Source: Candidatus Scalinduaceae bacterium (GTDB lineage: Bacteria > Planctomycetota > Brocadiia > Brocadiales > Scalinduaceae). Taken from it: 40,309 nt of DNA. The translations under genes were made by a program, and so were the position numbers. Of the stretch, positions 13,134 to 36,745 are shown one piece after another. The DNA is taken from assembly GCA_046759445.1 (NCBI GenBank), contig JBHICG010000027.1, positions 1 through 40,309 of the forward strand. The letters run 5' to 3'. Position 1 is the first letter of the stretch. Every line of letters begins with the position of its first letter. The notes below the pieces were generated by a model that searched no databases, was not told the DNA's origin, and saw nothing but the letters and a program-made list of their open reading frames with translations.

Positions 13134-13313
13134 GGATATTTTTCCTTAAATATTTCTTGTAATCTAATTAATTTGTTTTAGTTAAAAAATTGGTTTAGAA
13201 TCTATGGTCTAATCTTTCCAGTAAAAAACAGTTTGGAAATGGTTATTAAGATTCTTGATTATATTAAAAAAATGCCTATGGTCTCTATGACATGTGACAA
13301 GCTGTTTAGTTTA

Positions 13314-14501: not shown

Positions 14502-14638
14502 TTTATTTATATTCCAAAATCAAAAAGCCCTAAAATGTAAATGTCGTTGGAAGTTTCATAAGCTTATTTAAACCACTTTCTGTATCTCCCAAAGGATGTA
14601 AAAAATCACAAAATATAAAAATGTAAAAATCCAGAAGC

Positions 14639-15850: not shown

Positions 15851-16136
15851 TTTTTTTGGCTTTCTTTTTAAAAAATTTCTCAGATAAAATATTGACTCTT
15901 ATATAGTTTTTCTATAATGGCATCTGTTTCCATCTCAATTCTCCCAGTCAGTGATAAAGTATATTTGGCATAGCGATAACTTTTGTCCTGATCCCTGTTT
16001 GTACTATTACCCTAAAAGTCTCTTGATCATTCTTATTATCCCCTTCAGATTCGTCCTTAAGTTTTACTTTCAATTTTTAAGTCTTCTTGTTACGGGAGTA
16101 GTCCTTATGGACACACTGCACCTCTTTCTATTTATC

Positions 16137-19100
16137 TCAATCAACTTCTTTGGTGAATTTATCCAGCATAGTAGATATACGTTTTATAAGATTATTAATC
16201 TCCTGTACCAGCTCTTTATTATTATTTTTACTGACTTCATCAGGAAAATTCTGTGTCATAGAGATACTGACATTTGAAATATCATTTTTCTTTTCCAACT
16301 GGCCTTTCATATCGGCTACGCCTATGTTGGTCGCAGAAACATCTTCTTTCGTATACACATATTTCTCGCCTAAACTATCCTCCCATTCGCCAACCAGTAT
16401 AAATGGCGCCCAGAAGTATGGATGAGAGGCATCCAATACAATCTCTTTCGGCGTCTTCATTGTTTTTCCCAAATATTCACTATTGCTAAAATTCCTATCT
16501 TTGCCTAAACTATATTGTCTTTTCCTTATATCCATCCTGGCCAACTTGACTGCCTTTGCCTTATCTTTACCTTCCTCTAAATATTTATATACTGACGTCA
16601 TAAAATCTGTAGTTGATTTACTCATCACACTCCAGAGACTTACCAATACCGAAGGACTTCCCGCATACATAAACGCACGCGTTAATCCTACTACGCCTTC
16701 TCCCCTTATCTCCTCCCCCAGCCCTGTCTTACAGGCAGACAACGTTACCATATCTGCAGATAGCTCAAGTCCCATAATCTCGCTCATGGTCAGGTAGCCA
16801 TCCTCATCTTTGTTATGCACCAGATTCATGACCAGTGCAGGTTCTAAAATATACGGTATCTCATTTCCCAATATCCCGTGTGTGGCAAAATGGACGTATC
16901 TGTATCCTGAAAGGCTCGTATCCTTTACCTCAGCTTCGCTGGCGCCTATATCTAACTTGATATGGGAAGGATCATTAACCTTAAGAGTTTGTCCTATTTG
17001 AATCACTTCATCCCTCGTCTCCTTCAAACGTTGGAATGTATATCCCTTCTCATTCACAGCAATACCTCTTATCCTTGAAGATAATTTATCCTTATTTAAG
17101 TAGGCAAGTCTGATATCTTTCGATTTGCCTTCTAAGAAATTTACATAACGGTTATCTTCTTTATCGAATACAGGGTCACCCAGGGCAAATAGTGGATTTA
17201 ACCATTTTCTTTTATTTTTACCTAGCGTTCTATTAATTCCCATGACTGTGGCTGATTGATAATAACTTGTTGACCATTTATCACCAAAGTACTCAATGCC
17301 TTTGTAGCCTAGGATTGTGGGTTCTGAACCAGAATCCTTACCTTCTACCTGCAAACCTCTCAAATCCCCCTTTGTTAAAGGGGGGGTAGGGGTGATTTGA
17401 TTATTTTTCATGTTACTTGTATTGACGACCAGGGCCTCAAAGGGGAGCAGGTTTAGTATACCATCTGGTATAATGATAAGATGTGAATCTTTGGATAAAT
17501 CCTTTACGCCTTCTGCCAGAAGCAGGTCATATAACTCCTTTGCCTTCATGGGATCAAACTCATTCATGTAACTAATATCCTCAAAGGGGCGTCTGAATGC
17601 CTTTACCTTTTTACTTAAATCTTCTCTTGATATAGGAATCTCAATGAGCTTTATTAAATCGTTTTTTCTCTGCGTCCTCTGCGGTGAAGCATTACTTAAT
17701 TTACCCTCAGCCACCACAAACAAATATGTCGCCTTTTCTGTTATGCTATACTCTAGCAAAATTTCACCAGAGGTTAGTGGTATATCCTGCAATTTCAAGG
17801 GTTGAGGATATTTCAGGGCTGCATACTGTGGATAATCCCTTCTCAGATCAAGGACAAACTGTTCAAGTTCTGCCTCTAAGGTCTTCACCATCTCCTTCTT
17901 ATTTTTAAAAAGGTCCTTATCCTTTTTAAAAGCATCCTCCAGTTGCTCGTTAAGTTTGGCAATCCGATTGGTTAGCAATTGTTCTTTTTTATAAATATCT
18001 CTGGGTAACCCATAAGCGTTTTTAGTTCCCATTCTCTTTGACAGTATCTCAATTAGAGAACGGGATCTGGTTTTCTCTGAAAAGTAGAAAGAAACATCTG
18101 CATAATTATTCCCGTAACTCTTTAGATCTGCATTGTCTAATCTTACTCCTTTTAAGTGCAACTTTGCCAGTACTGAGCATAAGCGCTGATACGGTTCCAA
18201 TCTTGTCGACAAAAACCCTATTTTGTGATCTTCCTTGCTTAGGCCTAACCGCATCTTTTCAGCAGCATTAACTGCCTTGAGGTAAGAAACGATTGCATCT
18301 CGTAATCTACCTAGCCCTTCCTGAGCCTCTCCAAAATCCATATATAACGCGAAAAATTCGCTTGGGTTTAGAATCTCTGCCTCTTCAATATACTGCTCTT
18401 TTTCTTTTAAAAATAATTCATAACGAATTACAGCACTCTCAAAATCTCCCAATTTGGTATAGCAGACAGCTACACCGAAAAAATCGCCAGTCTTTTCAAA
18501 AAACTCAAGGCTCTTTTTATAATCTCCTAAAAGCATATATAATTCGTATAAGGCTGCAATAGCCGGAGAAGAAATTACCTCAATTTGTTTATTTTCAATG
18601 TTCTCATAAATATCATGTGCTTGTTTTAGATACTCAAAAGCCTTTGCTTGGTCACCAAAGTATTTACAATAAATTCTACCGATATTTATCAATTCATACA
18701 TTGCACCATAATTGTTACCGACGAGTCTGAAGGTTTCTAGCGCCTGCTCATAATTCTCAAATGATTTCGAATAGTTGCCTAATCTCTCGTAGATATAACC
18801 GATACAATGTATGGCACTTCCCACACCTTCCATATCATCAATTAATCTGAAAGTTTTCAAAGTTTGTTTAAAATACTCAAGAGCCTTGGGATAGTCGCCA
18901 AATTGCTCATAGACAACCCCTAAACTGCGCAAATGATCTGCTATACCATTCTTATCCCCTATGTTTCTATGAATTTCCAGAGCCTGTTTATGGTACTCAA
19001 GCGCCTTCGGATAATCTAACAGTGTACTGTATGCAGCACCGATACTGCCAAGTAAATATCCTTCTTGTTTCTTATCCCCAATAGCCCTTTCACATTCTAA

Positions 19101-19379
19101 TGCCTTTTCATAGAACTCAATTGCCGTTGAAGGAAAACCTAAAGCATCGTAAGCCATACCAAGGCTACCGTTTGACATGCCTATCAATTTTTGATGATTG
19201 ATTCTTTTGGAGATTATAAGAGTCTGTTTCCATTTTCTTGCTGCTTCGATGAAATCGTTTTTTTTATAAAGAGCCATACCTTCTTTAAACAAATCAATGG
19301 CTCTTTGTTTGTCATCTGCGTGTAATATGTTTGTGGTAAATAAGACAAGTATAATGGTTATGGCAAGTGTGAATTTCAT
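16137..19379 (-). CDS. Exported TPR-CHAT domain protease
   Basis: Signal peptide (LHA), tandem TPRs, SEKTRSRSL, IIPDGILNLLPFEAL, catalytic VHFATHG and VTLSACKTG, GLTRAFMYAG, VSLWSV, HPYFWAPFILVG. Confidence 0.95.
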   Translation of the reverse strand: MKFTLAITIILVLFTTNILHADDKQRAIDLFKEGMALYKKNDFIEAARKWKQTLIISKRINHQKLIGMSNGSLGMAYDALGFPSTAIEFYEKALECERAIGDKKQEGYLLGSIGAAYSTLLDYPKALEYHKQALEIHRNIGDKNGIADHLRSLGVVYEQFGDYPKALEYFKQTLKTFRLIDDMEGVGSAIHCIGYIYERLGNYSKSFENYEQALETFRLVGNNYGAMYELINIGRIYCKYFGDQAKAFEYLKQAHDIYENIENKQIEVISSPAIAALYELYMLLGDYKKSLEFFEKTGDFFGVAVCYTKLGDFESAVIRYELFLKEKEQYIEEAEILNPSEFFALYMDFGEAQEGLGRLRDAIVSYLKAVNAAEKMRLGLSKEDHKIGFLSTRLEPYQRLCSVLAKLHLKGVRLDNADLKSYGNNYADVSFYFSEKTRSRSLIEILSKRMGTKNAYGLPRDIYKKEQLLTNRIAKLNEQLEDAFKKDKDLFKNKKEMVKTLEAELEQFVLDLRRDYPQYAALKYPQPLKLQDIPLTSGEILLEYSITEKATYLFVVAEGKLSNASPQRTQRKNDLIKLIEIPISREDLSKKVKAFRRPFEDISYMNEFDPMKAKELYDLLLAEGVKDLSKDSHLIIIPDGILNLLPFEALVVNTSNMKNNQITPTPPLTKGDLRGLQVEGKDSGSEPTILGYKGIEYFGDKWSTSYYQSATVMGINRTLGKNKRKWLNPLFALGDPVFDKEDNRYVNFLEGKSKDIRLAYLNKDKLSSRIRGIAVNEKGYTFQRLKETRDEVIQIGQTLKVNDPSHIKLDIGASEAEVKDTSLSGYRYVHFATHGILGNEIPYILEPALVMNLVHNKDEDGYLTMSEIMGLELSADMVTLSACKTGLGEEIRGEGVVGLTRAFMYAGSPSVLVSLWSVMSKSTTDFMTSVYKYLEEGKDKAKAVKLARMDIRKRQYSLGKDRNFSNSEYLGKTMKTPKEIVLDASHPYFWAPFILVGEWEDSLGEKYVYTKEDVSATNIGVADMKGQLEKKNDISNVSISMTQNFPDEVSKNNNKELVQEINNLIKRISTMLDKFTKEVD
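17354..17397. repeat. Short palindromic REP-like element inside the CHAT ORF
   Basis: CCCCCTTT-GTT-AAAGGGGG hairpin, similar in layout to the intergenic element at 21372-21414. Confidence 0.6.
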
Positions 19380-24249: not shown

Positions 24250-24612
24250 TTAAAGTTTCTGTGTTTTGGGTTTTTTCCTTGATGGTTCTTGGTTTTTGCT
24301 GGCATTTACAACTAATAATTCCTTATTTATTTCCTTAATTAATGCCTGAAATGCTTCCATGTCCTTTTGGAGCATCTTTAAGCTCGTAAAAGGATCCTCT
24401 TCTCTGCCATAAGGCGTATTCGTGCTATTAGTGGTGACAACCTTTTCAGTCATTTCTTTATTAATGTTGTCATCCTTAATAAGTTTTTTCTTTATAAGGT
24501 CTATTCTATGGGCAGAAAAAAACCCAAGACCATAAGAAAAAAAGGTTAGAACTAGTATCAAGATAACGTTTTTCATGCTTAATTTTATTAATCTTACTTT
24601 TATCACAGGCAA
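24250..24612 (-). CDS. Hypothetical single-TM protein
   Basis: TM segment VILILVLTFFSYGLGFF followed by a short coiled-coil-like region; start may be ATG 24576. Confidence 0.6.
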   Translation of the reverse strand: MPVIKVRLIKLSMKNVILILVLTFFSYGLGFFSAHRIDLIKKKLIKDDNINKEMTEKVVTTNSTNTPYGREEDPFTSLKMLQKDMEAFQALIKEINKELLVVNASKNQEPSRKKPKTQKL

Positions 24613-24654: not shown

Positions 24655-24687
24655 ATATTAATCACTGTAAAAAGTAAATCTGGTGCA
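24655..24687 (-). promoter_or_regulatory. Conserved bipartite motif, copy 2 (TGCACCA-N15-GTGATTAATAT)
   Basis: Shares 24 identical nt (TTATAAATATTGCACCAGATTTAC) and the GTGATTAATAT box with copy 1. Confidence 0.7.
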
Positions 24688-24691: not shown

Positions 24692-25612
24692 TTATAATAA
24701 AATTTCTTTTAATTCTTGATCCTCTACTTCAAGAAATTGTCCGTCTTTAAGACTGATACCTTCAACTAAAAGTATCCAGTATCCTTGTGGCGTTTTAGAT
24801 ATACGGGCTTCTGTATAATTTATGTCTTTAACTGGTTTGGCAATAAACTTAATTGCCGACATCTCTTTCCAGTGGAAGTATCCAGCAGAATTACCTAACG
24901 CAATGGATATTTTTAAGTTCCCTGCATCCATTCCTTGCCTTGCCAATTCTGATTTGGTCCAATAGAGAAGGCCTTTTTCAGGTTCTATTGTACGATTCGA
25001 ATTATGGTTATAAAAATCCTGTAGCTTATCTTTGGTATCAAGTTTCTTAAACTTAAAATTTGGGGACTCGCAGACAAGAAGGTAACTGGGGTCACGAGTG
25101 GGATACGCTACTATCTTAAAGCCAAAAAAGGAGATAATTTCCCTCATGGTTTGATTTGTTACATCTTCAGAGAAGCTTACGTGCATATCTGTAACTATGG
25201 TACCTTCAAGCGGCAGGGCTCTTTTATACCTTTTGTATTCGTCAAGGGGCATGAATTGCTTTTGCTTTCTGTCAACGTCTGGAATTTCCACTATGTTTAT
25301 GATCTTTGCCTTGATGTCTTTATCTTCTTCCAAGTTTTCTTCCTGTTGCTTCCTTGTTCCCTTTGAGGATTCCTCTGTTGTTTTAACAGGTCTATACTTT
25401 TGGTTATTTAATGGTTCATTTATTTCTTTTTCATCCAAATCTGGTAAAAAATTAGCGGGGATTAATGAAATACTGTCCCTGGATTTGCTATTAGCCTTCT
25501 CAGGCATTGAACCTTTATCTTGTAACATTAGAATTACTAATATTAGAAGATTGCATATTAGAGATATAACAAGGTATTTGATTAGTCGTTTCATATTTTT
25601 TCTCCACTTCAC
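24692..25612 (-). CDS. Putative atypical TonB/TolA-like energy-transducing protein
   Basis: Follows exbD; N-terminal TM (ISLICNLLIL), long charged linker, unrecognised globular C-domain. Confidence 0.45.
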   Translation of the reverse strand: MKWRKNMKRLIKYLVISLICNLLILVILMLQDKGSMPEKANSKSRDSISLIPANFLPDLDEKEINEPLNNQKYRPVKTTEESSKGTRKQQEENLEEDKDIKAKIINIVEIPDVDRKQKQFMPLDEYKRYKRALPLEGTIVTDMHVSFSEDVTNQTMREIISFFGFKIVAYPTRDPSYLLVCESPNFKFKKLDTKDKLQDFYNHNSNRTIEPEKGLLYWTKSELARQGMDAGNLKISIALGNSAGYFHWKEMSAIKFIAKPVKDINYTEARISKTPQGYWILLVEGISLKDGQFLEVEDQELKEILL

Positions 25613-25724
25613 ATTGGAAGTAGTGTCAAATTATCAAGTGCAGAATATAGAAAATTGAATTCCCCATTTGTATTATCTCTTTCTTTTATATTTTTACTTC
25701 GTTTAAGTTCATTAATTGGATTCA

Positions 25725-26141
25725 CTATCCTTTATTCGCAGAGCTTGCTTTGAAATAGACTTTTGGTAAATCCGCCTCACGAATAGTCTGTAATATGCGC
25801 AGGGCATCACCCAGGAAGGCATTAGAATCACCATTAATTATTACGGTGACATCGTCTCCAGACTCTTTTTTCTCTACTAGTTTTTTAGAAAGTTCAGTTT
25901 GAGATGTAACTGGTTCTTTGTTGAAAAAGAGTTTGCCATCTTTTGTAATGCTAATTGTAACAAAGTCCTTTGGCTCAATATTTTGAACCTTCTTCAATTC
26001 AGGATTTTCAACATCTACCAGTTCAAGAAAGACCATCCTGGTCATCCCAATGATGCAGAAGATTACTATAATGAATATTATGTCTAACAAAGCAAGCATG
26101 TTAAATTCAGGTGTGCGCGCATACTTTTTTGATAATCTCAT
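25725..26141 (-). CDS. exbD: ExbD/TolR-family biopolymer transport protein
   Basis: FNMLALLDIIFIIVIF TM with the conserved Asp; ISITKDGKLFFN; VIINGDSNA. Confidence 0.9.
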   Translation of the reverse strand: MRLSKKYARTPEFNMLALLDIIFIIVIFCIIGMTRMVFLELVDVENPELKKVQNIEPKDFVTISITKDGKLFFNKEPVTSQTELSKKLVEKKESGDDVTVIINGDSNAFLGDALRILQTIREADLPKVYFKASSANKG

Positions 26142-26367
26142 ATTAAAATCTCACTTTGTAGCATTAGTCTGTAAACGCTTTGGACAGGCAGGGACGAAAA
26201 CCTATTCGAGTTGTTTACTCTGTTAAAATAAGTATGTTCCTTCAAACATGTATATCTAATCTATGGTAAATAATAATGGTATTTTCATATTATATTTATA
26301 TGTCTATTTAACAGGGTGAGCCTAATAACGAAAAACAAGCGATTGCGTATACACCCTCTAGGTCATT

Positions 26368-26997
26368 CTATGGTTTCTGGCATCTTATTTTTGCTAATTT
26401 AAATTCATTTAATCTTGACTCGATTTTTGATAGCGCCCTATCTGCTATTCCACCAAAGAAGTGGCTTGCTGCCAGATTGACTACAGCAACAACTAAACCG
26501 AGAAAAGTCGTTGTCATTGCCTCAGATATACCTCTTGCTATCAACGACATGTCAACTGTCTGACTCATTGTTCCAAATGCCTTGATTAACCCCGTAATAG
26601 TACCCAATAGTCCCAGTGCAGGCGCTATAACGGCACATGCATTAAGTATTCGTAAGTAACTATGTGACCTGCCGAATTCCTTGTCCACAGCTATTGCTAT
26701 TACGTTGTCCATCTCTTCCCTTTGAGGTATATCAGGAAGTAAATATCTGAATATTCGTACAAAGAGGTCTTTTGATTTTTTTGCTAACCCGCACGCCTCA
26801 ACAAATCTTCCAACTTTTATTGATTCGATTATTCTAGATTCACGAAAGGAATTTCTCCTAATCCACAGGAAGGACCAGAAGGTCATTCTTTCCATAATTA
26901 CGCCTATTGATAATATCCAGAGGAAAATAAGACATACTCCTATAGGACCACCATTTTTTAAAACTGTATTTAAAATATCCATCAGAAGTTTCTCCAA
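26368..26997 (-). CDS. exbB: MotA/TolQ/ExbB proton-channel protein
   Basis: GGPIG...IMER, APALGLLGTITGLIKAF, GISEAMTTTFLGLVVA. Confidence 0.9.
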   Translation of the reverse strand: MEKLLMDILNTVLKNGGPIGVCLIFLWILSIGVIMERMTFWSFLWIRRNSFRESRIIESIKVGRFVEACGLAKKSKDLFVRIFRYLLPDIPQREEMDNVIAIAVDKEFGRSHSYLRILNACAVIAPALGLLGTITGLIKAFGTMSQTVDMSLIARGISEAMTTTFLGLVVAVVNLAASHFFGGIADRALSKIESRLNEFKLAKIRCQKP

Positions 26998-27025
26998 TTT
27001 AAAATTAGTTCATTGTAGTTGCTGA

Positions 27026-27415
27026 TTATTCTTCAAGAAATAATTCTTTTGTACTTTCACTTTCCAATTCACCATAAACCAGAAAACAACGATAACACCT
27101 ATGACACGTGAAATCACATGAATCCAGGGTTCTACTAGCAATGTATTTGCGAAAGGCATTTATTCTCTCGACAGACATATTATTATTTATATTCAAAATC
27201 TTCCTTTCAATCTTGCTGCCAATCTCTTCCCCTTTACCATCGTAATTTGATGAATAGTGAGATTTTTTATCTGACACACGTTTTGCGTGATTCAATTGTC
27301 TAACTATGTCAATGTTTGGTCTATCAAGATATGCCAAATAATCAGTTCCTGGTGAATCATCAATTGATCTTGAGGAAAGAGTCCACCACAGCATGGCTAA
27401 GAGCAAGATTGTCAT
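27026..27415 (-). CDS. Hypothetical protein with C-terminal 4-Cys motif
   Basis: AGGAAGGA RBS; hydrophobic N-terminus; CDFTCHRCYRCFLVYG near the C-terminus. Confidence 0.65.
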   Translation of the reverse strand: MTILLLAMLWWTLSSRSIDDSPGTDYLAYLDRPNIDIVRQLNHAKRVSDKKSHYSSNYDGKGEEIGSKIERKILNINNNMSVERINAFRKYIASRTLDSCDFTCHRCYRCFLVYGELESESTKELFLEE

Positions 27416-27507
27416 TTTCGCATCCTTCCTGAAAAAAGTTTTTAGGCAGGATAATAGGTTAAGACAGATTATAAATCTTATATTGCTGTCTAAAATTTCC
27501 TTTGCGT

Positions 27508-28248
27508 CTAATTTACCTTTTTTCCGTAAAGAAGATTACATACATAGCAATCACTTCTCCCGCATGAAAATTCACAAAGGGCAAGGGTATTGTGTTGAAC
27601 ATCACCCAATAGATTCCTCGTCTCCTGGTAAGTAACTTGCTTGACAATATTACTCAAGTTGTTTTTTGCTTGTAGCGCAATTTTTGCCCTATCCTTGGTA
27701 TTATTCGCTTCGTTCTTTTGAATAAATGGATTTGAAATATTAGTAACGGTTTCCATTGTCTCCATATCCAAATTCAAATTAGAGATGCGTGTTCTAACTT
27801 CTACAAGGTCTTCCCGGAGTTCTACCATCCTATCTTTCAACTCTTTATCTTTTTCGTTATAGGCGCTATCAAAGGAAATCCATGTATTGTTAGCAATATC
27901 GCTATCCACTGACTCCAACATATGTTCAATTTGTGAATATTCCTTTTTTACTTTCTTTGGGAGCGATTTAAGCTGTTTTTCTAAATTATCAATCTCTTCG
28001 AGGATTTCTTTTTCCTTCTTTTGATTGTATGCAAGCTGTCTCCTGGCAATGTAGATATCGTTATTATTGGACATTACTTTCATATAATTTTTTTGTGCCT
28101 TGCTAGCACGTGCTTTTTTATCAACTGTCTTTTTAGCTTCAACGGTACTTTCATTGTGATTTTCATTGATGACTTCAAATGTATAATCTCCATATACGGT
28201 GAAACATGGAAACATTAAGATTATGGGCAATAAGATGAACTTTTTCAT
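27508..28248 (-). CDS. Exported coiled-coil protein with C-terminal 4-Cys motif
   Basis: AGGAG RBS before ATG 28248; signal peptide; heptad-rich region; CEFSCGRSDCYVCNLLYG. Confidence 0.75.
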   Translation of the reverse strand: MKKFILLPIILMFPCFTVYGDYTFEVINENHNESTVEAKKTVDKKARASKAQKNYMKVMSNNNDIYIARRQLAYNQKKEKEILEEIDNLEKQLKSLPKKVKKEYSQIEHMLESVDSDIANNTWISFDSAYNEKDKELKDRMVELREDLVEVRTRISNLNLDMETMETVTNISNPFIQKNEANNTKDRAKIALQAKNNLSNIVKQVTYQETRNLLGDVQHNTLALCEFSCGRSDCYVCNLLYGKKVN

Positions 28249-28345
28249 TGTAAGACTCCTTTCTATCAATAAGTTTAAAACTTAAAAACAATAATCACAA
28301 TTTCAGGTGATTGCCGTATATGATACGGCTAATAAAAGAATGAAC

Positions 28346-29353
28346 TTAGAAATATGTTTCAGCCTGTTTAGTTATCCATTCTTCTAGATCATCATTCCAT
28401 TTAATTCCATCAATCTCAATAGATTTACCGTCCGGGTTATTGACCAAGAATCTTGTTAATTCATCAGTTACCTGATTCATAATCCCTGAGAAGCCATCTA
28501 CAGTATCCCAGACATCTTGTACCTGTGTATACAGCTCAATTGCTGTACCGTCTCCAGAAAGCCCAGATTCGGGTACAGTAAAAATCATCATCATTCTGCA
28601 TACTTCAGCCGCACTTGAAAACTTTTGTCTCTCAACATTAAGCTTATCAAGTAAATGCTCTGTATGGCTACTGAGTTTACGGTAGAATATCCTTTTCCCA
28701 TCGACCATAGCTACAGCCTTGTTGATAACTTCTATTTGACCTGGAGTTTGTTGATTGCTATACGTAAAAGTATCTATTTTGTTCTTTAATAGATACAACT
28801 CTTCCTTCAATTCATCCGTCTGTTCATCCATATATTTCCTCGCAAGCTCACTTGACTTTTTTTGCAATTCCTCAAGCTTGCCCGAATTAATTTTGGCGTC
28901 ATCTGAGAGTTTTTGTAATTTTGCACCAAGTGATGTCTTCGCTTTCTCGAGTTCCCTATCTATTTCTTTAAATGAATCCTTTATTCTGTCTTTCTCTTTT
29001 ATCACTCCCACCATCTTTTCGTCTATCTTGTAAATGCTTTCAGAAAAGACGAATTGAAGTTGATCTAAAGTCTCTTGAGTTCTATTTTGTTTTACAGCCT
29101 CCAGTGCAGCTTTAATTTCTTCGGTAGCTTGATTAAGAGATTTTCTCAATGGTTTTGCCGTGTTAAGAGAATTGCGGATTTCCTTCTTAGGTTTTTCAAT
29201 GTTAATCTTGAACTCAGATATATCCGGGAGGAATCCAGTCCTTCCTTGAAAATCAGAAGACTGTTTTCTTTCAACAGATGCATGCACAACTATATTGTTA
29301 ACAAAGATAAATGATAAAACCATAAATGACATTACACATGATAATTTTTTCAT
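28346..29353 (-). CDS. Exported long coiled-coil protein
   Basis: GGAGGTG RBS, signal peptide (VHA), extended K/E/L-rich helical region. Confidence 0.8.
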   Translation of the reverse strand: MKKLSCVMSFMVLSFIFVNNIVVHASVERKQSSDFQGRTGFLPDISEFKINIEKPKKEIRNSLNTAKPLRKSLNQATEEIKAALEAVKQNRTQETLDQLQFVFSESIYKIDEKMVGVIKEKDRIKDSFKEIDRELEKAKTSLGAKLQKLSDDAKINSGKLEELQKKSSELARKYMDEQTDELKEELYLLKNKIDTFTYSNQQTPGQIEVINKAVAMVDGKRIFYRKLSSHTEHLLDKLNVERQKFSSAAEVCRMMMIFTVPESGLSGDGTAIELYTQVQDVWDTVDGFSGIMNQVTDELTRFLVNNPDGKSIEIDGIKWNDDLEEWITKQAETYF

Positions 29354-29367
29354 TAGTATACACCTCC

Positions 29368-30108
29368 TTAAAATTGAAACATTGGGTTTGAATTCTCAAC
29401 TATTTGTTTAATCCTTGCTTTTTCTTCCAGGGGCATATTCTTCCAGCTTGCTAAAGCTTCATCTTGTTTTCCTGATGCATATTGAAGGACTCCGAGCAGA
29501 TAATTATCCTCAACTGTAATGGGAAGATTGTTTTTTCTTAAGAATCGAATGAACTGTTCATAATCAGTTCTGGCCGAATCGAAGTTATCCATGCCTATAT
29601 ATGCTACTGCTCTGTTGTGCTGTAAAAATCCAGATACACTACTTTCTCCTTCAATAGCAAGGGCGGCGCTGAAGTCCTCAACTGCAGGTTTGTATCTACC
29701 CTGCAAGATATAAATCCTGCCCCTGAGGTTCAATGAATGAACGTTCAATGGATATTGCTTGATCGATTTGTTTACGTTTCGAAGTGATTCAGATATATTA
29801 CCCGTCTTAAATTCCAATTCTGCCCTGTAATAATATGCCAGTGGAGAATTTTCGGGATAGACATTAATGGCGTCGCTGAAGGTCTGTTTTGCGTTTGAAT
29901 ATTGCTTTATTCTCCATTGGGCTATACCCTTGTTTAAGAGGGCTTGATAATTATCTGAATGTTTTAAACCTTTGTCATAAAAGATAATTGCTTCCTCATA
30001 CCTTCCATCGTGCATATATTGGTCACCACGAGTAAACGACTTCGTAGAATTACATCCAGCAGCTACAACACATCCAAAAAAAATTATTATAAATAACTGT
30101 TTATACAT
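29368..30108 (-). CDS. TPR-repeat lipoprotein
   Basis: GGAGGA RBS before ATG 30108; lipobox AAGC; TPRs (ALLNKGIA, AYYYRAE, SLNLRGRIY, HNRAVAY). Confidence 0.88.
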   Translation of the reverse strand: MYKQLFIIIFFGCVVAAGCNSTKSFTRGDQYMHDGRYEEAIIFYDKGLKHSDNYQALLNKGIAQWRIKQYSNAKQTFSDAINVYPENSPLAYYYRAELEFKTGNISESLRNVNKSIKQYPLNVHSLNLRGRIYILQGRYKPAVEDFSAALAIEGESSVSGFLQHNRAVAYIGMDNFDSARTDYEQFIRFLRKNNLPITVEDNYLLGVLQYASGKQDEALASWKNMPLEEKARIKQIVENSNPMFQF

Positions 30109-30152
30109 AACTTTTTCCTCCAAATCTAAAAAGTAAATTTATTTTAACTAAT

Positions 30153-30268: not shown

Positions 30269-30679
30269 CTAAGTTTTATGTCTAACTAACTGATTTTGTT
30301 TAGCAGAATCTTCTACATCTGCTTCTGGTGGTAAATGACTTAATACAGTCTCTTGTTCATAGGTTTTAAATTTTACAATTTCCTTTATGCCCCAGTATAT
30401 CTGGAATCCTCCAAATATTGTCCAGAAGCTATTACTTGATTCAAGACCGCCAAGGCCATTGAGAAAACCTATGAGCATGAGTCCCATTCCAAGAATGATG
30501 AACATTATTCTGTGTTTCACTATAAAGCAGAGAATACCAATAATAATCAGCACTATCCCCCACTCTGCCCATAGAAGCGATGATAGGACAAAATGTAATA
30601 TACCCATAATTATCAGCCCAGCACCCCAACTATTTAGGTCTTCTGAAATCACATTCTTTATATCTTTAACTTCAGCCAT
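30269..30679 (-). CDS. Hypothetical 4-TM membrane protein
   Basis: AGGAG RBS; four hydrophobic segments. Confidence 0.75.
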   Translation of the reverse strand: MAEVKDIKNVISEDLNSWGAGLIIMGILHFVLSSLLWAEWGIVLIIIGILCFIVKHRIMFIILGMGLMLIGFLNGLGGLESSNSFWTIFGGFQIYWGIKEIVKFKTYEQETVLSHLPPEADVEDSAKQNQLVRHKT

Positions 30680-30722
30680 AATATTACTCTCCTTCCTTAA
30701 AATTATTCTGTCAGTAGATTAC

Positions 30723-30995
30723 TTAAGCTGTTTTCTCAACAATGATGTCGGTATCTTTAACTTCTGGAATATTAACCACCCTGGGCATTGAAATAAGCAC
30801 TATCTGGGTGATAATCACTATAAAATCTAAGATTACAAATACGCCTGTATTTTCAATAGTTCCTCCTCCTGCTCCTATAACTATTCCTACAAAAAAAGCA
30901 AACCCAGCCCCCACTCCTAACGGCATTAAGGAAAACCATTTCCAGCCTCTATTCCATGCAATAACCGTTAATACTATTTCCGCTATTAGTAACAT
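30723..30995 (-). CDS. Hypothetical small membrane protein
   Basis: GGAGGA RBS; three hydrophobic segments. Confidence 0.7.
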   Translation of the reverse strand: MLLIAEIVLTVIAWNRGWKWFSLMPLGVGAGFAFFVGIVIGAGGGTIENTGVFVILDFIVIITQIVLISMPRVVNIPEVKDTDIIVEKTA

Positions 30996-31041
30996 TTCTT
31001 TTCCTCCTTCTTTTTTAAGATGTTATAAATATTGTTTTTTC

Positions 31042-31230
31042 TCAGTAAACAATTCTTACTGAATTACTATAACGCTTTATAAATTCTGACAGTGTAACTA
31101 CCGCAAGTAAGCTCGTATTTATTGGTAACTTAGATACTTTTTCTGATTCTTCCTCAAAGATTGATAATAAATCCATTAGAGTGAAAGATGATTTGTCCAG
31201 AGTATCCGTATCTTCCGTGTCTTTCTGCAT
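31042..31230 (-). CDS. Small hypothetical protein (62 aa), paralog of 7084-7260
   Basis: AAGGAGG RBS before ATG 31230; FTLMDLLSIFEEE...TLSEFIKRY. Confidence 0.72.
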   Translation of the reverse strand: MQKDTEDTDTLDKSSFTLMDLLSIFEEESEKVSKLPINTSLLAVVTLSEFIKRYSNSVRIVY

Positions 31231-31284
31231 TTGATTTAACCTCCTTTCTTTTCTGGTTAAAGAAAAATTTTTTTTCACCCTATT

Positions 31285-31317
31285 ACTAAAATCAGCGCTA
31301 AATCGAAAGATGGTGTA
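31285..31317 (-). promoter_or_regulatory. Conserved bipartite motif, copy 4 (TACACCA-N15-CTGATTTTAGT)
   Basis: Same spacing; upstream of the 62-aa gene. Confidence 0.6.
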
Positions 31318-31439
31318 AAAAAATTATTATAGTTTTTCGGAATTTCTATGACCTATTGAGATTGAAGTAGTTTTTATGCTTAATTGTGTTATGGCGGGTT
31401 ATGAGCGAAGTGAATGAGATTCTTATTGTATATATTCAG

Positions 31440-31545
31440 TAATTAGTTTCTAGTTGCGGAAAGCTTATAAAAATGTCATTGGCAATTCAGTAACGGCAGA
31501 ATTGCTTATGTGACAATATAGTGTTTCCGCAACAAATACTAATTA
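31440..31545. repeat. Long imperfect inverted repeat
   Basis: Nested arm pairs TAATTAGT/ACTAATTA, GTTGCGGAAA/TTTCCGCAAC, TGTCA/TGACA and GCAATTC/GAATTGC. Confidence 0.65.
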
Positions 31546-31584
31546 GATAACTATTTTGGAAAAACAAATAAAATCATAATGTTT

Positions 31585-31965
31585 TTATTGAAACTTATAA
31601 GTTACCTTTTTTTCTGTTTCTTCTAGTAATCTTTCTTTGGTTAGATAAGATTTCTCAATATATACAAGATTTGGGTCTGTTTTTCTAAGGCACTTATATC
31701 GTCTTTCAGGATAGGCACTGATTACTATTACGGGAATATCTTCAAACTCCGGCATACTTTTTAGGTACAAGAAAAACGTGTCTCCTGTAACCATATCCAA
31801 AAGTATGTCCAGGATTATTAAATCTGGTTTGTCTTCCTTTAACTTCATCATCGCTTCATCTCCATCATAGGCATAAATAATATTATAATTTCTGCCCTCA
31901 AACATTAGCTCATATAAGTCATGAAAGAACTTTTCATCTTCAATTATCATTATTTTTTTGTTCAT
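31585..31965 (-). CDS. Single-domain response regulator (receiver only)
   Basis: GAGGAGG RBS before ATG 31965; IMIIEDE, PDLIILDI, IPVIVISA, YIEK. Confidence 0.9.
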   Translation of the reverse strand: MNKKIMIIEDEKFFHDLYELMFEGRNYNIIYAYDGDEAMMKLKEDKPDLIILDILLDMVTGDTFFLYLKSMPEFEDIPVIVISAYPERRYKCLRKTDPNLVYIEKSYLTKERLLEETEKKVTYKFQ

Positions 31966-32027
31966 ATGTCCTCCTCTCAGTACAAAAGGGAATAGCAATG
32001 TAGATAAAAGTTTGATTGCCTTTTACT

Positions 32028-32060
32028 GCATATATCTATGCTAGACTATAAAATGGTGTA
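32028..32060 (-). promoter_or_regulatory. Weak copy of the bipartite motif (TACACCA-N15-TAGATATAT)
   Basis: The upstream box and T-tract match copies 3 and 4; the downstream box is degenerate. Lies upstream of the receiver gene. Confidence 0.35.
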
Positions 32061-32602
32061 AAAAAAATATTGTTACACATAAATTCTTTTTCAAGAATAC
32101 TATATATAATAGTAACCGGTCTCTTATGATGACTAAAGCTTTTACGTCAATTCGTTTTCTACGCCCTAATATGAATATTTTGAAAAATTATTAACTAGTG
32201 TGGACAAAACTTAGATTGGTACAGATTTTAAGTGCAAACAAAGGTGTTTTGTCTTGGTTGTCTATCGATGAGCTTTTAATTGACAAAGATAGTGATATCC
32301 TGTAACGTAATGAATAATTAACTGTGATGTAAGAGTATGATTTGATTTGCTTTATGAATGATGAATAAGATAGGAAGTTTTTTATTAAAAATTGAAATAG
32401 AAGACTTCGGTTATTAAACTATTCAATTCTGCAAAATGTAGTTTTTGAATGAAAACCTTTTACTTTACGGATTCAACAATAACTAAGTCATAAGTGTTTT
32501 ATTTCAAATTAGCTTATATAATTTCTGAAACATAAATACTATATAATTTGATACAAGATTTGTACATGTTTAACGAATAATTGTGTCGAAAATAAAATAT
32601 TA

Positions 32603-32635
32603 TGCACCAAATTCATTTTTTGTGGTGATTAATAT
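32603..32635 (+). promoter_or_regulatory. Conserved bipartite motif, copy 5 (TGCACCA-N15-GTGATTAATAT)
   Basis: Both boxes identical to copies 1 and 2; upstream of the sigma gene. Confidence 0.7.
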
Positions 32636-32734
32636 AATATTGGAATAAATGTATAGTCTTCTATATGTTGTTTTAAAAAAATATAACGACATCTGCAACA
32701 TTTGGGTAAGTTTTCTAACTTAATTTGTTTTTTC

Positions 32735-32767
32735 TGCACCAGTAGGAAAACTTGTAATGATTATTTA
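32735..32767 (+). promoter_or_regulatory. Conserved bipartite motif, copy 6 (TGCACCA-N15-ATGATTATTTA)
   Basis: Second tandem copy upstream of the sigma gene. Confidence 0.62.
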
Positions 32768-32936
32768 GATATTCGTTAGGATAAAGCTTTTGTATAAAGG
32801 GTTACCAACTTACAATGAATATCAGTGATGTAAACGAATCAATCTAAATATAATAACGGTGGGGCCATATGGTTTGAGAATTTATCTCTCGATAGGCCCT
32901 TACGCCTTTATACACCCTCCACATGATTTTGAGTAA

Positions 32937-33668
32937 TTGCCAAAGGTAACTTCACCCATGCCAGATGAACTGACTAACGAAAAACTTATAGAATTAAAAA
33001 GGATTATTAATGAAGATAGTCCAGATGCTGAAGAGGCAAGAAGGATATTTTGTAACTTTATACGATATAAGGTTGAAAAGATTCTAAACAAGAGATCAAT
33101 TAGATATGGCAAACCTTATAAGTATTATCTTAATAGCTATTTGGATATAGGAATAGGTGTAGCGCTTTTAGCATTGTGTAAAAAATGGAATTCGGAAATC
33201 AATGTGCCATATATGGCTTTTTTCTGGATGTATGTAAAAAATTGGATTAATGATGAAATCAATAAAAATGAAGAAAGATTAATTTCAATTGATCAATCAA
33301 CAAAAGAAAATGATGATGAAGCACGTACATTAGGAGATACTGTCCCGGCTAAAGAATTACCAATAAAATACATTGATTTAGGTATGCGTGTTGCGGAAAT
33401 AATATATGATCAGAAATATAAGAACCAAAAATTTATATGGCTGCTGGCAAAAGGTTATAGTTATAGAGAAATGGAAAGGGAATTTGGTATTAATCGTAGA
33501 ACTTTGACAAGCATGCTGAAAAACGTAATGGAAAGATTGCAAAATGAGATGAGATCGTTCTTTGAGATGAGGAATTTGGATATTGATAATGAGACGGCAA
33601 TAAAGATGTTGAAGTATTTGCATTGCCATAATATTCTAAAAGAAAGGAGTGACAACAATGAAGGCTGA
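32937..33668 (+). CDS. Divergent sigma70-family (ECF/SigH-like) sigma factor
   Basis: Region-2-like ALLALCKKWN...YMAFFWMYVKNWINDEI, linker ISIDQ...TLGDTV, and region-4 HTH GYSYREMEREFGINRRTL. Overlaps a zinc-finger anti-sigma gene. Start may be ATG 32958. Confidence 0.72.
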   Translation: MPKVTSPMPDELTNEKLIELKRIINEDSPDAEEARRIFCNFIRYKVEKILNKRSIRYGKPYKYYLNSYLDIGIGVALLALCKKWNSEINVPYMAFFWMYVKNWINDEINKNEERLISIDQSTKENDDEARTLGDTVPAKELPIKYIDLGMRVAEIIYDQKYKNQKFIWLLAKGYSYREMEREFGINRRTLTSMLKNVMERLQNEMRSFFEMRNLDIDNETAIKMLKYLHCHNILKERSDNNEG

Positions 33669-34467
33669 ACAACATATAGCAATTGACGAACTCATGATAT
33701 ACCTGGAAAATTCTACTGATTCTGAAGAAAACGTGATTATTGAGGAACACTTGGCGGAATGCGATGCGTGTGTGGCTAATCTAAGCTCTCTTGATGCATT
33801 AAAGACAGGATTAAGGAAGTTCGGGGAGCATTCACAGGAGTTAGTAGAAAGTGGTGCATCTACCCACTTAACAGATGAAGAGATTCCCAGTTATGTCAAG
33901 GATATGTGTGATGAGGATAAAAAAAGAATGATAGTGACTCACCTTGCTGGCTGTGAAAAATGCTTCAATGATGTGCTTGCTATAGAGAATGTATTAGAAC
34001 AAATAGAATCTGAAGCAACATTAATTAAAAAAGTTTCTATTATTTCCAAGTTTATAGTAAGTCACCCAACCAGAATTCCTGCAGTAGAAAGAGAGGGAAA
34101 GGAATTAATTCGTGAAGCTGCAAGAAATTGTTTTGCACCGTTTTTATTGGAGAGAGCATTTAGCTTTTCATTCAAAGGGACGGAAAGTACAGAGACCAAA
34201 CTATACAAGAAACCCAGAAAGATGGATATCAAGGGTTTTACGATTGAAATGACCCAAACTCTTACAAAACCACCAAAAGTTATAATAGGGATCATGGCCA
34301 AAGATGATTTTAAACAGGTAAAGGTTACAATAATCTATTTGAAAGAAGGACAAGAAAAAGAACAATCTGAGATGATATCTCTTAGACAAAGAAACGCCGT
34401 AATCCATAAAGAAAATATGACAGTTGATGACATAATCAACATTGAGGTGCGAGGATACAAATCGTAA
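33658..34467 (+). CDS. Soluble anti-sigma-like protein with two zf-HC2 (ZAS-type) motifs
   Basis: AAGGAG RBS before ATG 33658; HIAIDELMIYLE...HLAECDAC and HLTDEEIPSYVK...HLAGCEKC; no TM segment. Confidence 0.8.
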   Translation: MKAEQHIAIDELMIYLENSTDSEENVIIEEHLAECDACVANLSSLDALKTGLRKFGEHSQELVESGASTHLTDEEIPSYVKDMCDEDKKRMIVTHLAGCEKCFNDVLAIENVLEQIESEATLIKKVSIISKFIVSHPTRIPAVEREGKELIREAARNCFAPFLLERAFSFSFKGTESTETKLYKKPRKMDIKGFTIEMTQTLTKPPKVIIGIMAKDDFKQVKVTIIYLKEGQEKEQSEMISLRQRNAVIHKENMTVDDIINIEVRGYKS

Positions 34468-34533
34468 AGAGTTGGTTTTACTAGCAACCCGCAACTATAA
34501 TCTCCTTAAAATGATAAAAAGGAATTAGTAAAC

Positions 34534-34848
34534 ATGGAGTCCACTAATCCACAAATTAATGAATCAGAGGTTGAAATTAAGATTGAGGAGTTAAGAAAGG
34601 AAAGAGAATCTGGCAAATCACATTTTATATGCTACCTCAAGGCATTGGATATCTTTGTTGATCTGTGTAATGGAAATCCTGAAGAAAGTAAGATAGATTC
34701 AAAAATTATTAAATCACTTTCCAGAGAGCTTGCCTTTAACTTGAGAATGGAATTGGAATATTTTGTTAACTCTATCGTAGATGAGAGGGTTAAGGAGAAA
34801 TGGAAAGAACTGATAAAAAAACTTAAGGAGTCTCATTCCCAATGTTGA
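34534..34848 (+). CDS. Small helical hypothetical protein
   Basis: AAGGA RBS; its end overlaps the start of the next gene. Confidence 0.65.
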   Translation: MESTNPQINESEVEIKIEELRKERESGKSHFICYLKALDIFVDLCNGNPEESKIDSKIIKSLSRELAFNLRMELEYFVNSIVDERVKEKWKELIKKLKESHSQC

Positions 34849-35993
34849 TAAACGTAAATACAATAATGGTAAAAGGAACTGATGTCGGGACTAAGGAAAA
34901 CAAACAAAATGGGAAAATTCATTATATTCAACTATCGCTAATCAAGGAAGGTGAGTATGACCTCATTATGCCTAGTCTTGAGGATAGTACTAAAGAAAAG
35001 GAGAGATTAAAAACAGTCATTAACAGGATTCGAGGGTTAAAGAACATAGATCAATTACGCTTCCGTATTGATTTACGCATCGACGAAGATGGAAACCTAG
35101 ATTATCAGGAACAATTGGATGATTTAAAGTCATTAGAGCTTTCTATCGGAATAAGCATTCAGGCGTGTTGTTGTTGGAAAGATATATGGGATAGAATATG
35201 GTCTGAGTGGAGCTTTAGCGGTGTTATTGATGGGCTAAATTGTGAAATCCGCAAAATAGACTCACTCAATGCCAAACTTAATGCTGCCGTATTCAATGAT
35301 GATAATATAAAATACATTATGATCCCATATGATAATAAGCAAGAAACAATAAACTGGGTTAAGGAAGAGGGAATCAGATATGAGGAGGGTTCCAAGACTG
35401 GTATAAAAATTACTGATAATAAAAAAAAACCTCTTCTCCTTAGCAGAGTTTGGTCATTGGCAACCAAAAATACTATTACGAGGATAGCACTGATATTATG
35501 GATATTATCAATAATTTATATCCCGATAAGATACCTTTTCTGGAATGATATCCAGTCGTGGAAGTCAGGTATTCCACAGGTAACCATAAATCTACCCGTT
35601 AACAACCCCAAAAAGGTAAAGGAAAAACTTTTGGGTAAAGGTTTTCCAGAAGACCAACTAAAAGAGATTTCCTTATCATCCTTAACTAAAATGAAACAGG
35701 GTCGCAAGGTATTAATTACAAATAGAGATGGGGCTATTGAGTTTGAAATTACTGATTTACTAGATTGGACGATAATATCCAGTTACATTTGCTGTGGGTA
35801 CGTTATTTTATTTGCCTTTGTACTTGTTATGATTGCATTAAGAAATAATAACAGCGACATTAAAGAAAATCGTGGAGATATAAATTATGATTCCGTAATC
35901 CTGCCGTTAATTAACAAAGAGATTATTTTTGTAGACAATATAAAAAAAGCCGAAACCATTGTAGAATACAAGATCCATCAAACCGTAGGGTAA
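34842..35993 (+). CDS. Membrane-anchored Lon-protease-like (S16 proteolytic fold) protein lacking an AAA+ module
   Basis: LKSLELSIGI...FSGVIDG...EIRKIDSLNAKLNAA...IKYIMIPYDN and C-terminal EIIFVDNIKKA follow the Lon P-domain motif order; two TM helices lie in between. Confidence 0.65.
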   Translation: MLINVNTIMVKGTDVGTKENKQNGKIHYIQLSLIKEGEYDLIMPSLEDSTKEKERLKTVINRIRGLKNIDQLRFRIDLRIDEDGNLDYQEQLDDLKSLELSIGISIQACCCWKDIWDRIWSEWSFSGVIDGLNCEIRKIDSLNAKLNAAVFNDDNIKYIMIPYDNKQETINWVKEEGIRYEEGSKTGIKITDNKKKPLLLSRVWSLATKNTITRIALILWILSIIYIPIRYLFWNDIQSWKSGIPQVTINLPVNNPKKVKEKLLGKGFPEDQLKEISLSSLTKMKQGRKVLITNRDGAIEFEITDLLDWTIISSYICCGYVILFAFVLVMIALRNNNSDIKENRGDINYDSVILPLINKEIIFVDNIKKAETIVEYKIHQTVG

Positions 35994-36060
35994 TTAAAAT
36001 TAAAATCTTGCTTAACTTCTACCAGACCTTAAAATCACTCTCAAGGAGTTTTCATTCTGC

Positions 36061-36205
36061 CACTGACAGATACAGATTATCATGATGAAAATATTATCTA
36101 CGTGCCCGCCTGCCCGCCCGGCAAATCTGTTTGTAGGGAATGACCGTCCAATTCGGCACGCGGGCACGCTTAGTCAGTGAAAATCTGGTGCGCCATGAGG
36201 CGCAC
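36061..36205. repeat. Nested GC-rich palindromic (REP/MITE-like) elements
   Basis: CACTGAC/GTCAGTG encloses CGTGCCCGC/GCGGGCACG; followed by a GTGCGCC-ATGA-GGCGCAC hairpin. Confidence 0.6.
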
Positions 36206-36745
36206 ATATACTATACTGGCTAAATTTAACATGAGAAAGTCCTTACTATTGTAAAACTTGGGACACTTCCCATATTTATTTACTCTTTTAAGTTACTTTA
36301 GAACATTGATTATTTGCATTTATAGATAGAGCTGGTTGTAGTGTTTATAATTCAAATCCATATATAAACGATTATGCCCAGAATGAACCTGTCAACTTTG
36401 ATGTTCCTTATGGGTTACATATGATACAATTTTTATAATAGAAAACATGGAGAAGGAAGGGAAATTTCTCGAAGAAGCTCTTGGTATAATAAAGTTTACT
36501 GAAGAAAGATGGTTTTAGATATTAAAAACCGACTCTAATAATCAAAGAGTCTATTTTTTATGCCTTAACCCTATTTCTTAATTGTGTAAGTACCTTTGCT
36601 CCCTCATATACTAAAACACCAAGTCTAAGTCTGTATATATCTAATCGGAAAACACTGTGAAAAAGATATAAAAGTAATAGTAAAGAAATATAATTTTTAT
36701 GATAGGGATTATAATAATGCAACTTGGGTGCTTCGTGTAAAAGTG

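Follow-up and report, generated by a model that had tools for sequence, protein, structure and literature searches.

A putative sigma/anti-sigma switch encoded with a membrane-anchored Lon-type peptidase in Scalindua-type anammox bacteria

What frees a sigma factor from its inhibitor when the pair is encoded beside a membrane protein of the Lon type? This question is raised by four genes at positions 32937 to 35993 of a 40,309-nucleotide (nt) stretch of Candidatus (Ca.) Scalinduaceae DNA (contig JBHICG010000027.1; the whole stretch is referred to here as the window), which appear to encode, in this order, a sigma-like protein, a protein of the zinc-associated anti-sigma (ZAS) type, a small acidic protein and a Lon-like protein. 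The answer that we favour, tentatively, is that the four form a sigma/anti-sigma switch gated by a membrane-anchored, ATP-independent Lon-type peptidase. The window is chromosomal DNA of a Scalindua-type anammox planctomycete, since its closest protein relatives belong to Ca. Scalindua; the genes have a chromosomal setting, among housekeeping genes, and a plasmid search gave no match.

All four genes lie on the plus strand. The sigma-like open reading frame (ORF) spans 32937-33668 from a TTG start (243 amino acids, aa), and the database copy begins at the ATG at 32958 (236 aa); the anti-sigma ORF spans 33649-34467 from a GTG start (272 aa), its database copy beginning at the ATG at 33658 (269 aa). 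The small-protein gene follows at 34534-34848 (104 aa) and the Lon-like gene at 34842-35993 (383 aa). An initial annotation of this DNA had described four co-oriented genes in two overlapping pairs, and the ORF list gives exactly these coordinates. Counted from the internal ATG starts at 32958 and 33658, the first two genes share 11 nt. The stop of the small gene lies over the start of the Lon-like gene, with 7 nt in common, and a gap of 66 nt is left between the anti-sigma gene and the small gene. Since GGAG precedes the downstream ATG in both overlapping pairs, the two genes of each pair are probably translationally coupled. All four proteins are kept in other genomes, at 13-66% identity, and the ORFs are therefore genes and not chance reading frames.

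The 383-aa protein gave nothing significant when it was searched against Pfam, NCBIfam, PADLOC and, with phmmer, the PDB. Pfam Lon_C did not match it at E<=1, and the curated gathering score was not reached; when 11 members of its family were scanned singly, six matched Lon_C below threshold (best E=5.7e-4), and no other family was matched by more than one of the 11. A five-sequence profile run against the PDB placed antibody chains on top (E=0.022), which we regard as spurious, with Lon appearing only at E=0.16. A clearer picture came from structure. The full-length AlphaFold 2 (AF2) model built from five sequences was too poor to use (predicted local distance difference test score, pLDDT, 47.1), and aa 1-195 were then folded with 11 sequences, giving a pLDDT of 79.2 and a predicted template modelling score of 0.80. 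Foldseek found 81 PDB matches to this model at E<=1e-3, headed by Bacillus subtilis LonBA (8dvh_B, 2e-5), and each of the best 30 of the 81 was either a Lon proteolytic domain or a Lon-like domain, the latter from ComM, RadA or BrxL (TMq 0.42-0.61); the Lon domains of Escherichia coli (3wu6_A), A. fulgidus (1z0e_A) and human LONP1 were among the matches listed. The one match at E<=1e-3 in a viral library was a Megavirus Lon-like protein. A structure search with the ESM Atlas's own model returned Lon or YifB/ComM types in 10 of 10 rows (template modelling score by query 0.65-0.72), and the ESM Atlas feature search gave Lon_C clusters only at ranks 10 and 14 (0.86 and 0.83), which serve as leads only.

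Alignment with the E. coli Lon proteolytic domain by hhalign gave E=3.6e-5 over the lysine motif, and a permissive local alignment gave E=7.3e-6 over 166 columns. It can be seen in both the local and the global alignments that S97 (codon 35130-35132, plus strand) aligns with E. coli Lon S679 in DGPSAG and K145 (codon 35274-35276, plus strand) with K722 in GGLKEK, the two residues that we take to be the catalytic dyad of that enzyme, which agrees with the dyads S234/K279 of YlbL and S152/K193 of CalpL. All 10 relatives that cover these residues have S97, K145, G127 and, in the T704 column, a serine or threonine, at 33-51% overall identity; an eleventh row of the alignment is a C-terminal fragment. 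No AAA family model matched the 383-aa protein, in which the Lon fold begins at residue 1, and neither a SAVED nor a PDZ domain was matched (Pfam for both, and PADLOC for SAVED). On the strength of the structure model, Foldseek and hhalign, aa 1-195 of the 383 (34842-35426, plus strand) are predicted to adopt the Lon (S16-type) proteolytic-domain fold with conserved Ser-Lys dyad positions. The initial annotation had already read 34842-35993 as a Lon-P-domain-like product and had picked out S97 and K145; the Lon/S16 fold is recovered by both Foldseek and the ESM Atlas, and the dyad alignment leads to the same two residues. The whole protein is a putative ATP-independent Lon-type Ser-Lys peptidase.

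The remainder of the protein is a membrane hairpin with a short tail. Kyte-Doolittle (KD) hydropathy identifies two hydrophobic segments, and the two transmembrane (TM) helices that had been claimed for this protein are thus borne out: TM1 at aa ~210-234 (35469-35543, plus strand; KD peak 2.15), which is a helix at 211-237 in the full-length AF2 model, and TM2 at aa ~309-336 (35766-35849, plus strand; KD peak 2.66), a helix at 319-335 in the same model. The same windows show no hydrophobic segment in the sigma-like, anti-sigma or small proteins. Between the two segments lies a loop of ~74 aa (35544-35765, plus strand) that is predicted to be extracytoplasmic and is a candidate sensor, and after them a predicted cytoplasmic tail with the topology strand-strand-helix (aa 337-383; 35850-35993 with the stop codon, plus strand). 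TM1 is the most conserved segment of the protein, at 58.5% mean identity compared with 38.6% for the Lon domain; the loop (44.1%) contains conserved TINLP and LL..GFP motifs, and the tail (48.8%), where I361, F363, V364 and A370 hardly vary, was modelled better than any other part of the full-length AF2 fold (block pLDDT 84/74). With loop, TM1 and tail conserved, all parts of the Lon-like protein appear to be constrained. There is no N-terminal signal peptide, the chain opening with the first strand of the Lon fold, and the simplest topology would therefore place the Lon domain in the cytoplasm, the ~74-aa loop outside and the 47-aa tail inside.

Relatives of the Lon-like protein are few. Its family comprised five clusters, itself included, among 5.8 billion sequences and 12 representatives at E<=1e-3 among 1.84 billion, and by these searches it appears to be confined to anammox Scalindua-type bacteria. 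A genome scan gave 51 pattern matches, three of which encode a relative; these loci come from Ca. Scalindua rubra (L001), an uncultured Brocadiaceae bacterium (L002) and a Ca. Scalindua sp. (L003). In tblastn searches the anti-sigma and Lon-like proteins were found together in 3/3 loci, the small protein in two of the three (the L003 copy was identified by position and alignment) and the sigma-like protein also in two of the three. At the sigma position of L002 there is a 5'-truncated ORF at the contig edge with a helix-turn-helix (HTH) match and only 13% identity, which tblastn missed. The order sigma, anti-sigma, small, Lon-like, on one strand, is the same in the window and in L001-L003, so that the neighbourhood suggested by the initial annotation co-occurs in all three other genomes. 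The downstream flanks vary, with tyrosyl-tRNA synthetase (TyrRS) in the window and other genes in the other loci, and the four-gene linkage survives rearrangement.

The second gene encodes a protein that matches Pfam zf-HC2 (PF13490) in two stretches at 42.5 bits, above the cut-off of 22.2; the best NCBIfam match, to the RsrA model (E=5.6e-7), and that to the ChrR model (E=3.3e-4) are both sub-threshold. Its HxxxCxxC motifs are H31-x3-C35-x2-C38 and H95-x3-C99-x2-C102, with an additional histidine 25 residues upstream of each (H6 and H70), and all eight residues, H6/H31/C35/C38 and H70/H95/C99/C102, are invariant in 9/9 orthologs. The two sets belong to an internal repeat that is in register (aa 3-46 against 67-110, E=7e-6), with the units 64 residues apart. 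The N-terminal half is thus best described, from its sequence, as a ZAS unit duplicated in tandem, each copy offering four candidate zinc ligands, with repeat 1 occupying aa 1-64 (33658-33849, plus strand; 54% identity) and repeat 2 aa 65-128 (33850-34041, plus strand; 56% identity). ChrR and RsrA use an upstream histidine as a zinc ligand, and by analogy H6 and H70 may do the same. The closest PDB sequence is 3hug_B (E=0.24), presumably Mycobacterium tuberculosis RslA. The conserved ~140 aa that follow (aa 129-269) belong to no known family; they divide into a middle part (aa 129-175, 57% identity), a variable linker (aa 176-192, 36%) and a C-terminal domain (aa 193-269, 48%). As there is no hydrophobic segment, the protein should be soluble. 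A soluble anti-sigma with two HxxxCxxC motifs is what the initial annotation had described, and the zf-HC2 score and the invariant motifs uphold that description; the protein is most probably a soluble anti-sigma, with putative sigma binding and inhibition. Literature look-ups returned no description of tandem ZAS units.

The sigma-like protein (32958-33668, plus strand; 236 aa) is the weakest assignment of the four. It matches TIGR02937 (sigma70-ECF; ECF, extracytoplasmic function) at E=9.9e-6 over aa 77-205, on positions 39-165 of the 165 of the model; the score is 25.3 bits against a cut-off of 42.9, which leaves the earlier sigma70-like claim below the curated threshold. Pfam gave weak HTH matches only, with Sigma70_r4_2 at E=0.1 and region 2 unmatched. 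When a four-ortholog profile was run against the PDB, B. subtilis SigW (5wuq_A) aligned over 60-200 against 50-186 at E=0.055, below a spurious proteasome subunit at E=0.032. In the ESM Atlas feature search (scores 0.96-0.97) all of the family-bearing neighbour clusters were Sigma70 region 2, region 4 or ECF. A word-based homolog search with this protein found itself only, and its orthologs were taken from loci L001-L003 instead. Because these sequence signals are combined with a translationally coupled ZAS gene, we consider the product likely to be a divergent ECF-like sigma. An extension of ~30 aa after the region-4-like HTH (aa 206-236; 33572-33668) is partly conserved in L002 and L003.

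The small protein (104 aa, acidic, isoelectric point (pI) 5.5) gave nothing significant against Pfam, NCBIfam, PADLOC or the PDB, the last searched with a profile. Its orthologs occupy the same position in L001, L002 and L003, with 33-62% identity and 22 invariant columns, and in the window as in these loci the small gene runs into the beginning of the Lon-like gene.

From this gene set we infer a relay of the following kind. At rest, the divergent ECF-like sigma would be held in the cytoplasm by the soluble tandem-ZAS anti-sigma; the Lon-fold domain, with S97 and K145, would face the cytoplasm, the helical hairpin anchoring the 383-aa protein; and the translationally coupled 104-aa acidic protein would act as an adaptor or inhibitor of the Lon-like protein. 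The peptidase would be turned on when the loop or TM1 senses a cue in the envelope or the membrane, perhaps via oligomerisation or release of the small protein. It would then cut the anti-sigma, most plausibly in the poorly conserved linker at aa 176-192, general proteases would clear the anti-sigma fragments, and the freed sigma would transcribe its own operon together with envelope genes.

A candidate for the promoter of this operon is a two-block motif, GCACCAG-N13-AATGAT (core TGCACCAG-N15-TGAT), at 32736-32761 on the plus strand. An exact copy lies upstream of the orthologous sigma gene in L003 (5100-5125, plus strand), the flanking DNA differing between the two, and the motif is thus upstream of the sigma gene in both of the genomes that have upstream DNA. 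With one mismatch it recurs in the window at 5843-5868 (plus strand), upstream of a gene for an exported 333-aa protein (6019-7020), and at 24661-24686 (minus strand), upstream of 24250-24612, which encodes a small membrane protein and is followed by a gene for a 3D-domain lipoprotein. A further copy lies at 4816-4841 (minus strand) of L003, and a fourth one-mismatch site is antisense within a caspase gene. With up to three mismatches there are 21 sites in the window, where 10.6+-3.2 would be expected, and 0/100 shuffles reached 21. The motif may be the cognate, autoregulatory promoter of the sigma, and it is a candidate alternative-sigma promoter that the operon of the sigma would have in common with two others, both of which encode exported or membrane proteins.

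Other promoter signals were considered and set aside. A sigma-70 promoter and terminator scan was uninformative (25 sites against 24.2 expected), and a GGAAAAC...CGTT sequence upstream of the sigma gene was rejected as an ECF-type promoter, its spacing of ~22 nt being too long. The motif does not support the caspase genes as a regulon, there being no upstream site with two or fewer mismatches. A reading of the 333-aa protein as a transglutaminase-like cysteine peptidase found no support in Pfam. The regions upstream of 6019-7020 and 24250-24612 share ~40 nt that are near-identical.

Several points weigh against a protease-gated switch. The sigma identity lies under every curated cut-off (Pfam and NCBIfam), and hhalign with E. 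coli RpoE covered region 4 only (E=0.013, probability 3%, not significant). The loop of the Lon-like protein is basic (pI 9.06, 12 lysines or arginines in 76 aa), and the positive-inside rule therefore does not settle the topology. At two or fewer mismatches the two-block motif is found in neither L001 nor L002, nor upstream of the caspase genes. A same-strand insertion of 5.3 kb (1412-6716) in L001, which carries genes for an unknown 480-aa protein, a caspase-Big_7 protein and a DUF4384 protein, splits the anti-sigma gene from the small gene, so that the sigma/anti-sigma and small/Lon-like halves can be transcriptionally uncoupled. All four genomes fall in one narrow lineage (Scalinduaceae/Brocadiales), for which reason the linkage carries limited weight; since L003 is in addition syntenic with the window upstream of the module (window positions 24692-30123), the linkage may in part reflect common descent and not selection. 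Finally, RsrA and similar anti-sigmas of the ZAS type are sensors in their own right, with no protease involved.

This last point leads to the alternative that best survives, which the initial annotation did not consider and which we regard as rather unlikely yet worth weighing in full: that the tandem-ZAS anti-sigma itself senses thiol oxidation, an electrophile or a metal. The small and Lon-like genes would then be a separate unit and not the trigger, either serving as an output of the sigma or having an unrelated role in envelope or membrane proteolysis. The two complete and invariant His/His/Cys/Cys sets would suit such a sensor, as would a best NCBIfam match to a redox-sensing model, RsrA, even at its sub-threshold score, and a soluble anti-sigma could be reached by a cytoplasmic signal without any membrane protease. 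The gene arrangement can be read in the same sense, with overlaps within each pair and 66 nt between the pairs, and with three genes standing between them in L001. The same arrangement also speaks for a single system, in that strand, order and closeness are kept in all four genomes despite differing downstream flanks. Moreover, a pure ZAS redox switch has no role for the conserved 140-aa C-terminal part of the anti-sigma, and the CalpL/CalpT/CalpS (CalpL/T/S) system, to which we return below, offers a precedent for control by a protease.

A second alternative is that the linkage is mechanistically meaningless and that the pairs are adjacent by descent and act independently. The cluster is known from one family-level lineage only, and both the upstream synteny between the window and L003 and the insertion in L001 are compatible with simple inheritance. 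We think this unlikely: the order has been kept while identities have fallen to 39-50% and downstream neighbours have been rearranged, and the Lon-like gene accompanies the anti-sigma gene in all three of the genomes with readable context.

It is less probable still that the Lon fold is a non-catalytic scaffold, comparable to those of RadA, ComM and BrxL, which tethers the anti-sigma or the sigma to the membrane and acts by sequestration and release, not by cleavage. The Lon-like domains of these three proteins are among the best fold matches, and the window protein lies below the Pfam Lon_C cut-off, both of which would fit a scaffold. Against this, the alignments retain S97, K145, G127 and the serine or threonine of the T704 column in every relative that covers them, S97 and K145 in register with S679 and K722 of E. 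coli Lon, a pattern that contrasts with the non-catalytic Lon-like domains of RadA, ComM and BrxL.

A protease-gated switch also has to be placed in its surroundings, above all with respect to defence. The module lies on the strand opposite to both of its neighbours, a response-regulator gene and tyrS (TyrRS). PADLOC gave no match for any of the four module proteins, and among the 30 ORFs of the window there is no cas or SAVED gene, no PADLOC-listed defence gene and no repeat array. The absence from the window of any SAVED component or any component of clustered regularly interspaced short palindromic repeats (CRISPR), asserted in the initial annotation, is confirmed by the agreement of Pfam, PADLOC, ORF and repeat scans. 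The one Cas-named match, a sub-significant hit to Cas3-like_C_2 with no qualifying stretch, fell inside the Mfd helicase and was discarded as helicase cross-similarity. Likewise, no cas gene was found among 17 ORFs scanned in L001-L003, a scan that covered part of the ORFs of those loci.

Caspase-domain genes adjoin the cluster or sit within it in all three related loci. They belong to a wider set of genes that is found beside or inside the module at 1562-6367 and 9248-11002 of L001, 3262-6561 of L002 and 8189-10180 of L003, and that in the window occupies 7877-19379 on the minus strand, 14-25 kb from the module. The set consists of two caspase-domain lipoproteins, a DUF4384/CsgG-like lipoprotein and a 395-aa FlgT_N-like protein, and also holds an FGE-sulfatase-domain protein and a TPR-CHAT protein with a signal peptide. 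Window homologs of the caspase, DUF4384 and 395-aa genes of the loci lie at 7.9-14.5 kb, and the L003 caspase is 48% identical to the product of 7877-9406. An N-terminal signal or lipoprotein peptide was present in 13 of the 14 associated proteins inspected, from which it follows that the associated set is exported. These proteins may be functional partners of the module; alternatively, genes of this kind may just be abundant in Scalindua genomes.

The least probable reading, for which we see only a slight chance, is an anti-phage or abortive-infection module like CalpL/T/S or Craspase/Csx30/CASP-sigma with a non-nucleotide trigger and the neighbouring caspase-like proteases as output: it has in its favour the protease, anti-sigma and sigma logic, the caspase genes beside or inside the cluster in 3/3 related loci (21-27 kb upstream in the window) and the mention of Scalindua in papers about type III-E (gRAMP/Craspase) systems, and against it the lack of PADLOC matches and of any cas gene, SAVED gene or repeat array in the window, the signal or lipoprotein peptides that mark the neighbouring caspases as exported, and the chromosomal housekeeping setting without a plasmid match.

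The immediate flanks were also inspected. Long AT-rich intergenic stretches lie on either side of the module (31999-32936 and 35994-36745); within them we found no gene remnant, no DNA shared with L001-L003 beyond the motif and no Rfam match, and Rfam, tRNA and tandem-repeat scans gave nothing relevant. Between a TPR gene and the module, 30269-31998 (minus strand) encodes multi-TM proteins of 136 and 90 aa, a 78-aa ORF and an orphan receiver-domain protein (31585-31998); in L003, where the upstream region is otherwise syntenic with the window, the TPR gene directly abuts the sigma promoter region. The GC skew flips near ~32000, from -0.18 to +0.23, where the coding strand turns from minus to plus; the flip fits the gene orientation, with no sign of a replication landmark.

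How does a switch gated by a Lon-type peptidase compare with known systems? According to the paper on CalpL, that protein joins a SAVED sensor to a Lon domain with the dyad S152/K193, CalpT combines a MazF-like part with DUF2080, and the anti-sigma is cut at a poorly structured site, which uncovers a degron and sets the sigma free, with RseA named as a parallel (10.1101/2024.05.08.593097). The module resembles this system in combining the genes for a Lon-fold protein without an ATPase, here a putative Ser-Lys peptidase, with those for a soluble anti-sigma and a likely ECF-like sigma. The differences are considerable: the module has no SAVED sensor, cyclic-nucleotide input or CRISPR locus; its Lon domain is N-terminal and followed by a TM hairpin; its anti-sigma carries tandem zf-HC2 units, in contrast to the MazF-like and DUF2080 architecture described for CalpT; and it has an additional 104-aa protein. 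CalpL structures are absent from the best 30 of the 81 Foldseek PDB matches. The earlier suggestion of a CalpL/T/S analogue therefore holds for the shared logic and the ATPase-less Lon fold, and does not extend to the SAVED sensor or to the architecture given for CalpT. We conclude that the module is an analogue of CalpL/T/S in logic at most, and not a member of that system.

In RseA-type cascades (DegS/RseP, then ClpXP) an envelope signal leads to anti-sigma cleavage and sigma release, as is proposed here. RseA-type anti-sigmas are membrane proteins cut by site-1 and site-2 proteases of other folds, whereas here the anti-sigma is predicted to be soluble and the membrane protein is the predicted Lon-fold peptidase. 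With RsrA, ChrR and RslA the anti-sigma shares the HxxxCxxC motif with an upstream ligand and PF13490 above cut-off, and it differs from them in having two complete tandem ZAS units and a 140-aa C-terminal part that belongs to no family. With LonA and LonB the module protein has in common the proteolytic-domain fold and, in the alignment, the Ser and Lys positions; it lacks their AAA+ module and substrate-binding N domain, and its sequence similarity to them is sub-threshold. A further ATPase-less, membrane-anchored Lon-domain protein with a Ser-Lys dyad is YlbL (DdcP), which is described as having TM, Lon and PDZ parts and the dyad S234/K279 (PMC6051672). In YlbL the TM anchor is N-terminal, whereas the protein considered here lacks a PDZ domain and a signal peptide, opens with the Lon domain and continues into a TM hairpin and a tail.

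A literature search returned no description of a membrane Lon-like protease paired with an anti-sigma of this architecture, and in the main text of an ECF classification paper (PMC7826278) the whole words 'Lon' and 'protease' do not occur, its supplements being a place where the group of this sigma may be listed. We conclude that the module is best seen as a protease-controlled type of sigma/anti-sigma system with three unusual parts: a Lon domain that precedes a TM hairpin, a soluble anti-sigma with its ZAS units in tandem, and a small partner that is likewise conserved. We also regard it as possible, if somewhat doubtful, that relays built from a Lon-fold protease, an anti-sigma and a sigma form a wider class, to which the module would belong as a CRISPR-independent, hairpin-gated case, wired in anammox bacteria to exported caspase-like proteases.

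The biological reach of such a system is narrow, as the family appears to be confined to anammox Scalindua-type bacteria, in which it would be a compact four-protein system. Within the literature searched, its second protein would be the first soluble anti-sigma with two complete ZAS units and its fourth the first Lon domain N-terminal to a TM hairpin. If it is true that the peptidase cuts the anti-sigma, then sigma release by a Lon fold would not be peculiar to CRISPR signalling; it would be a more general design, open to coupling with sensors of various kinds, which in this module would be a membrane hairpin in place of SAVED. In that case Scalindua-type bacteria would have a third route from envelope signal to sigma factor, beside the regulated intramembrane proteolysis cascades that act on membrane anti-sigmas and the nucleotide-activated CalpL.

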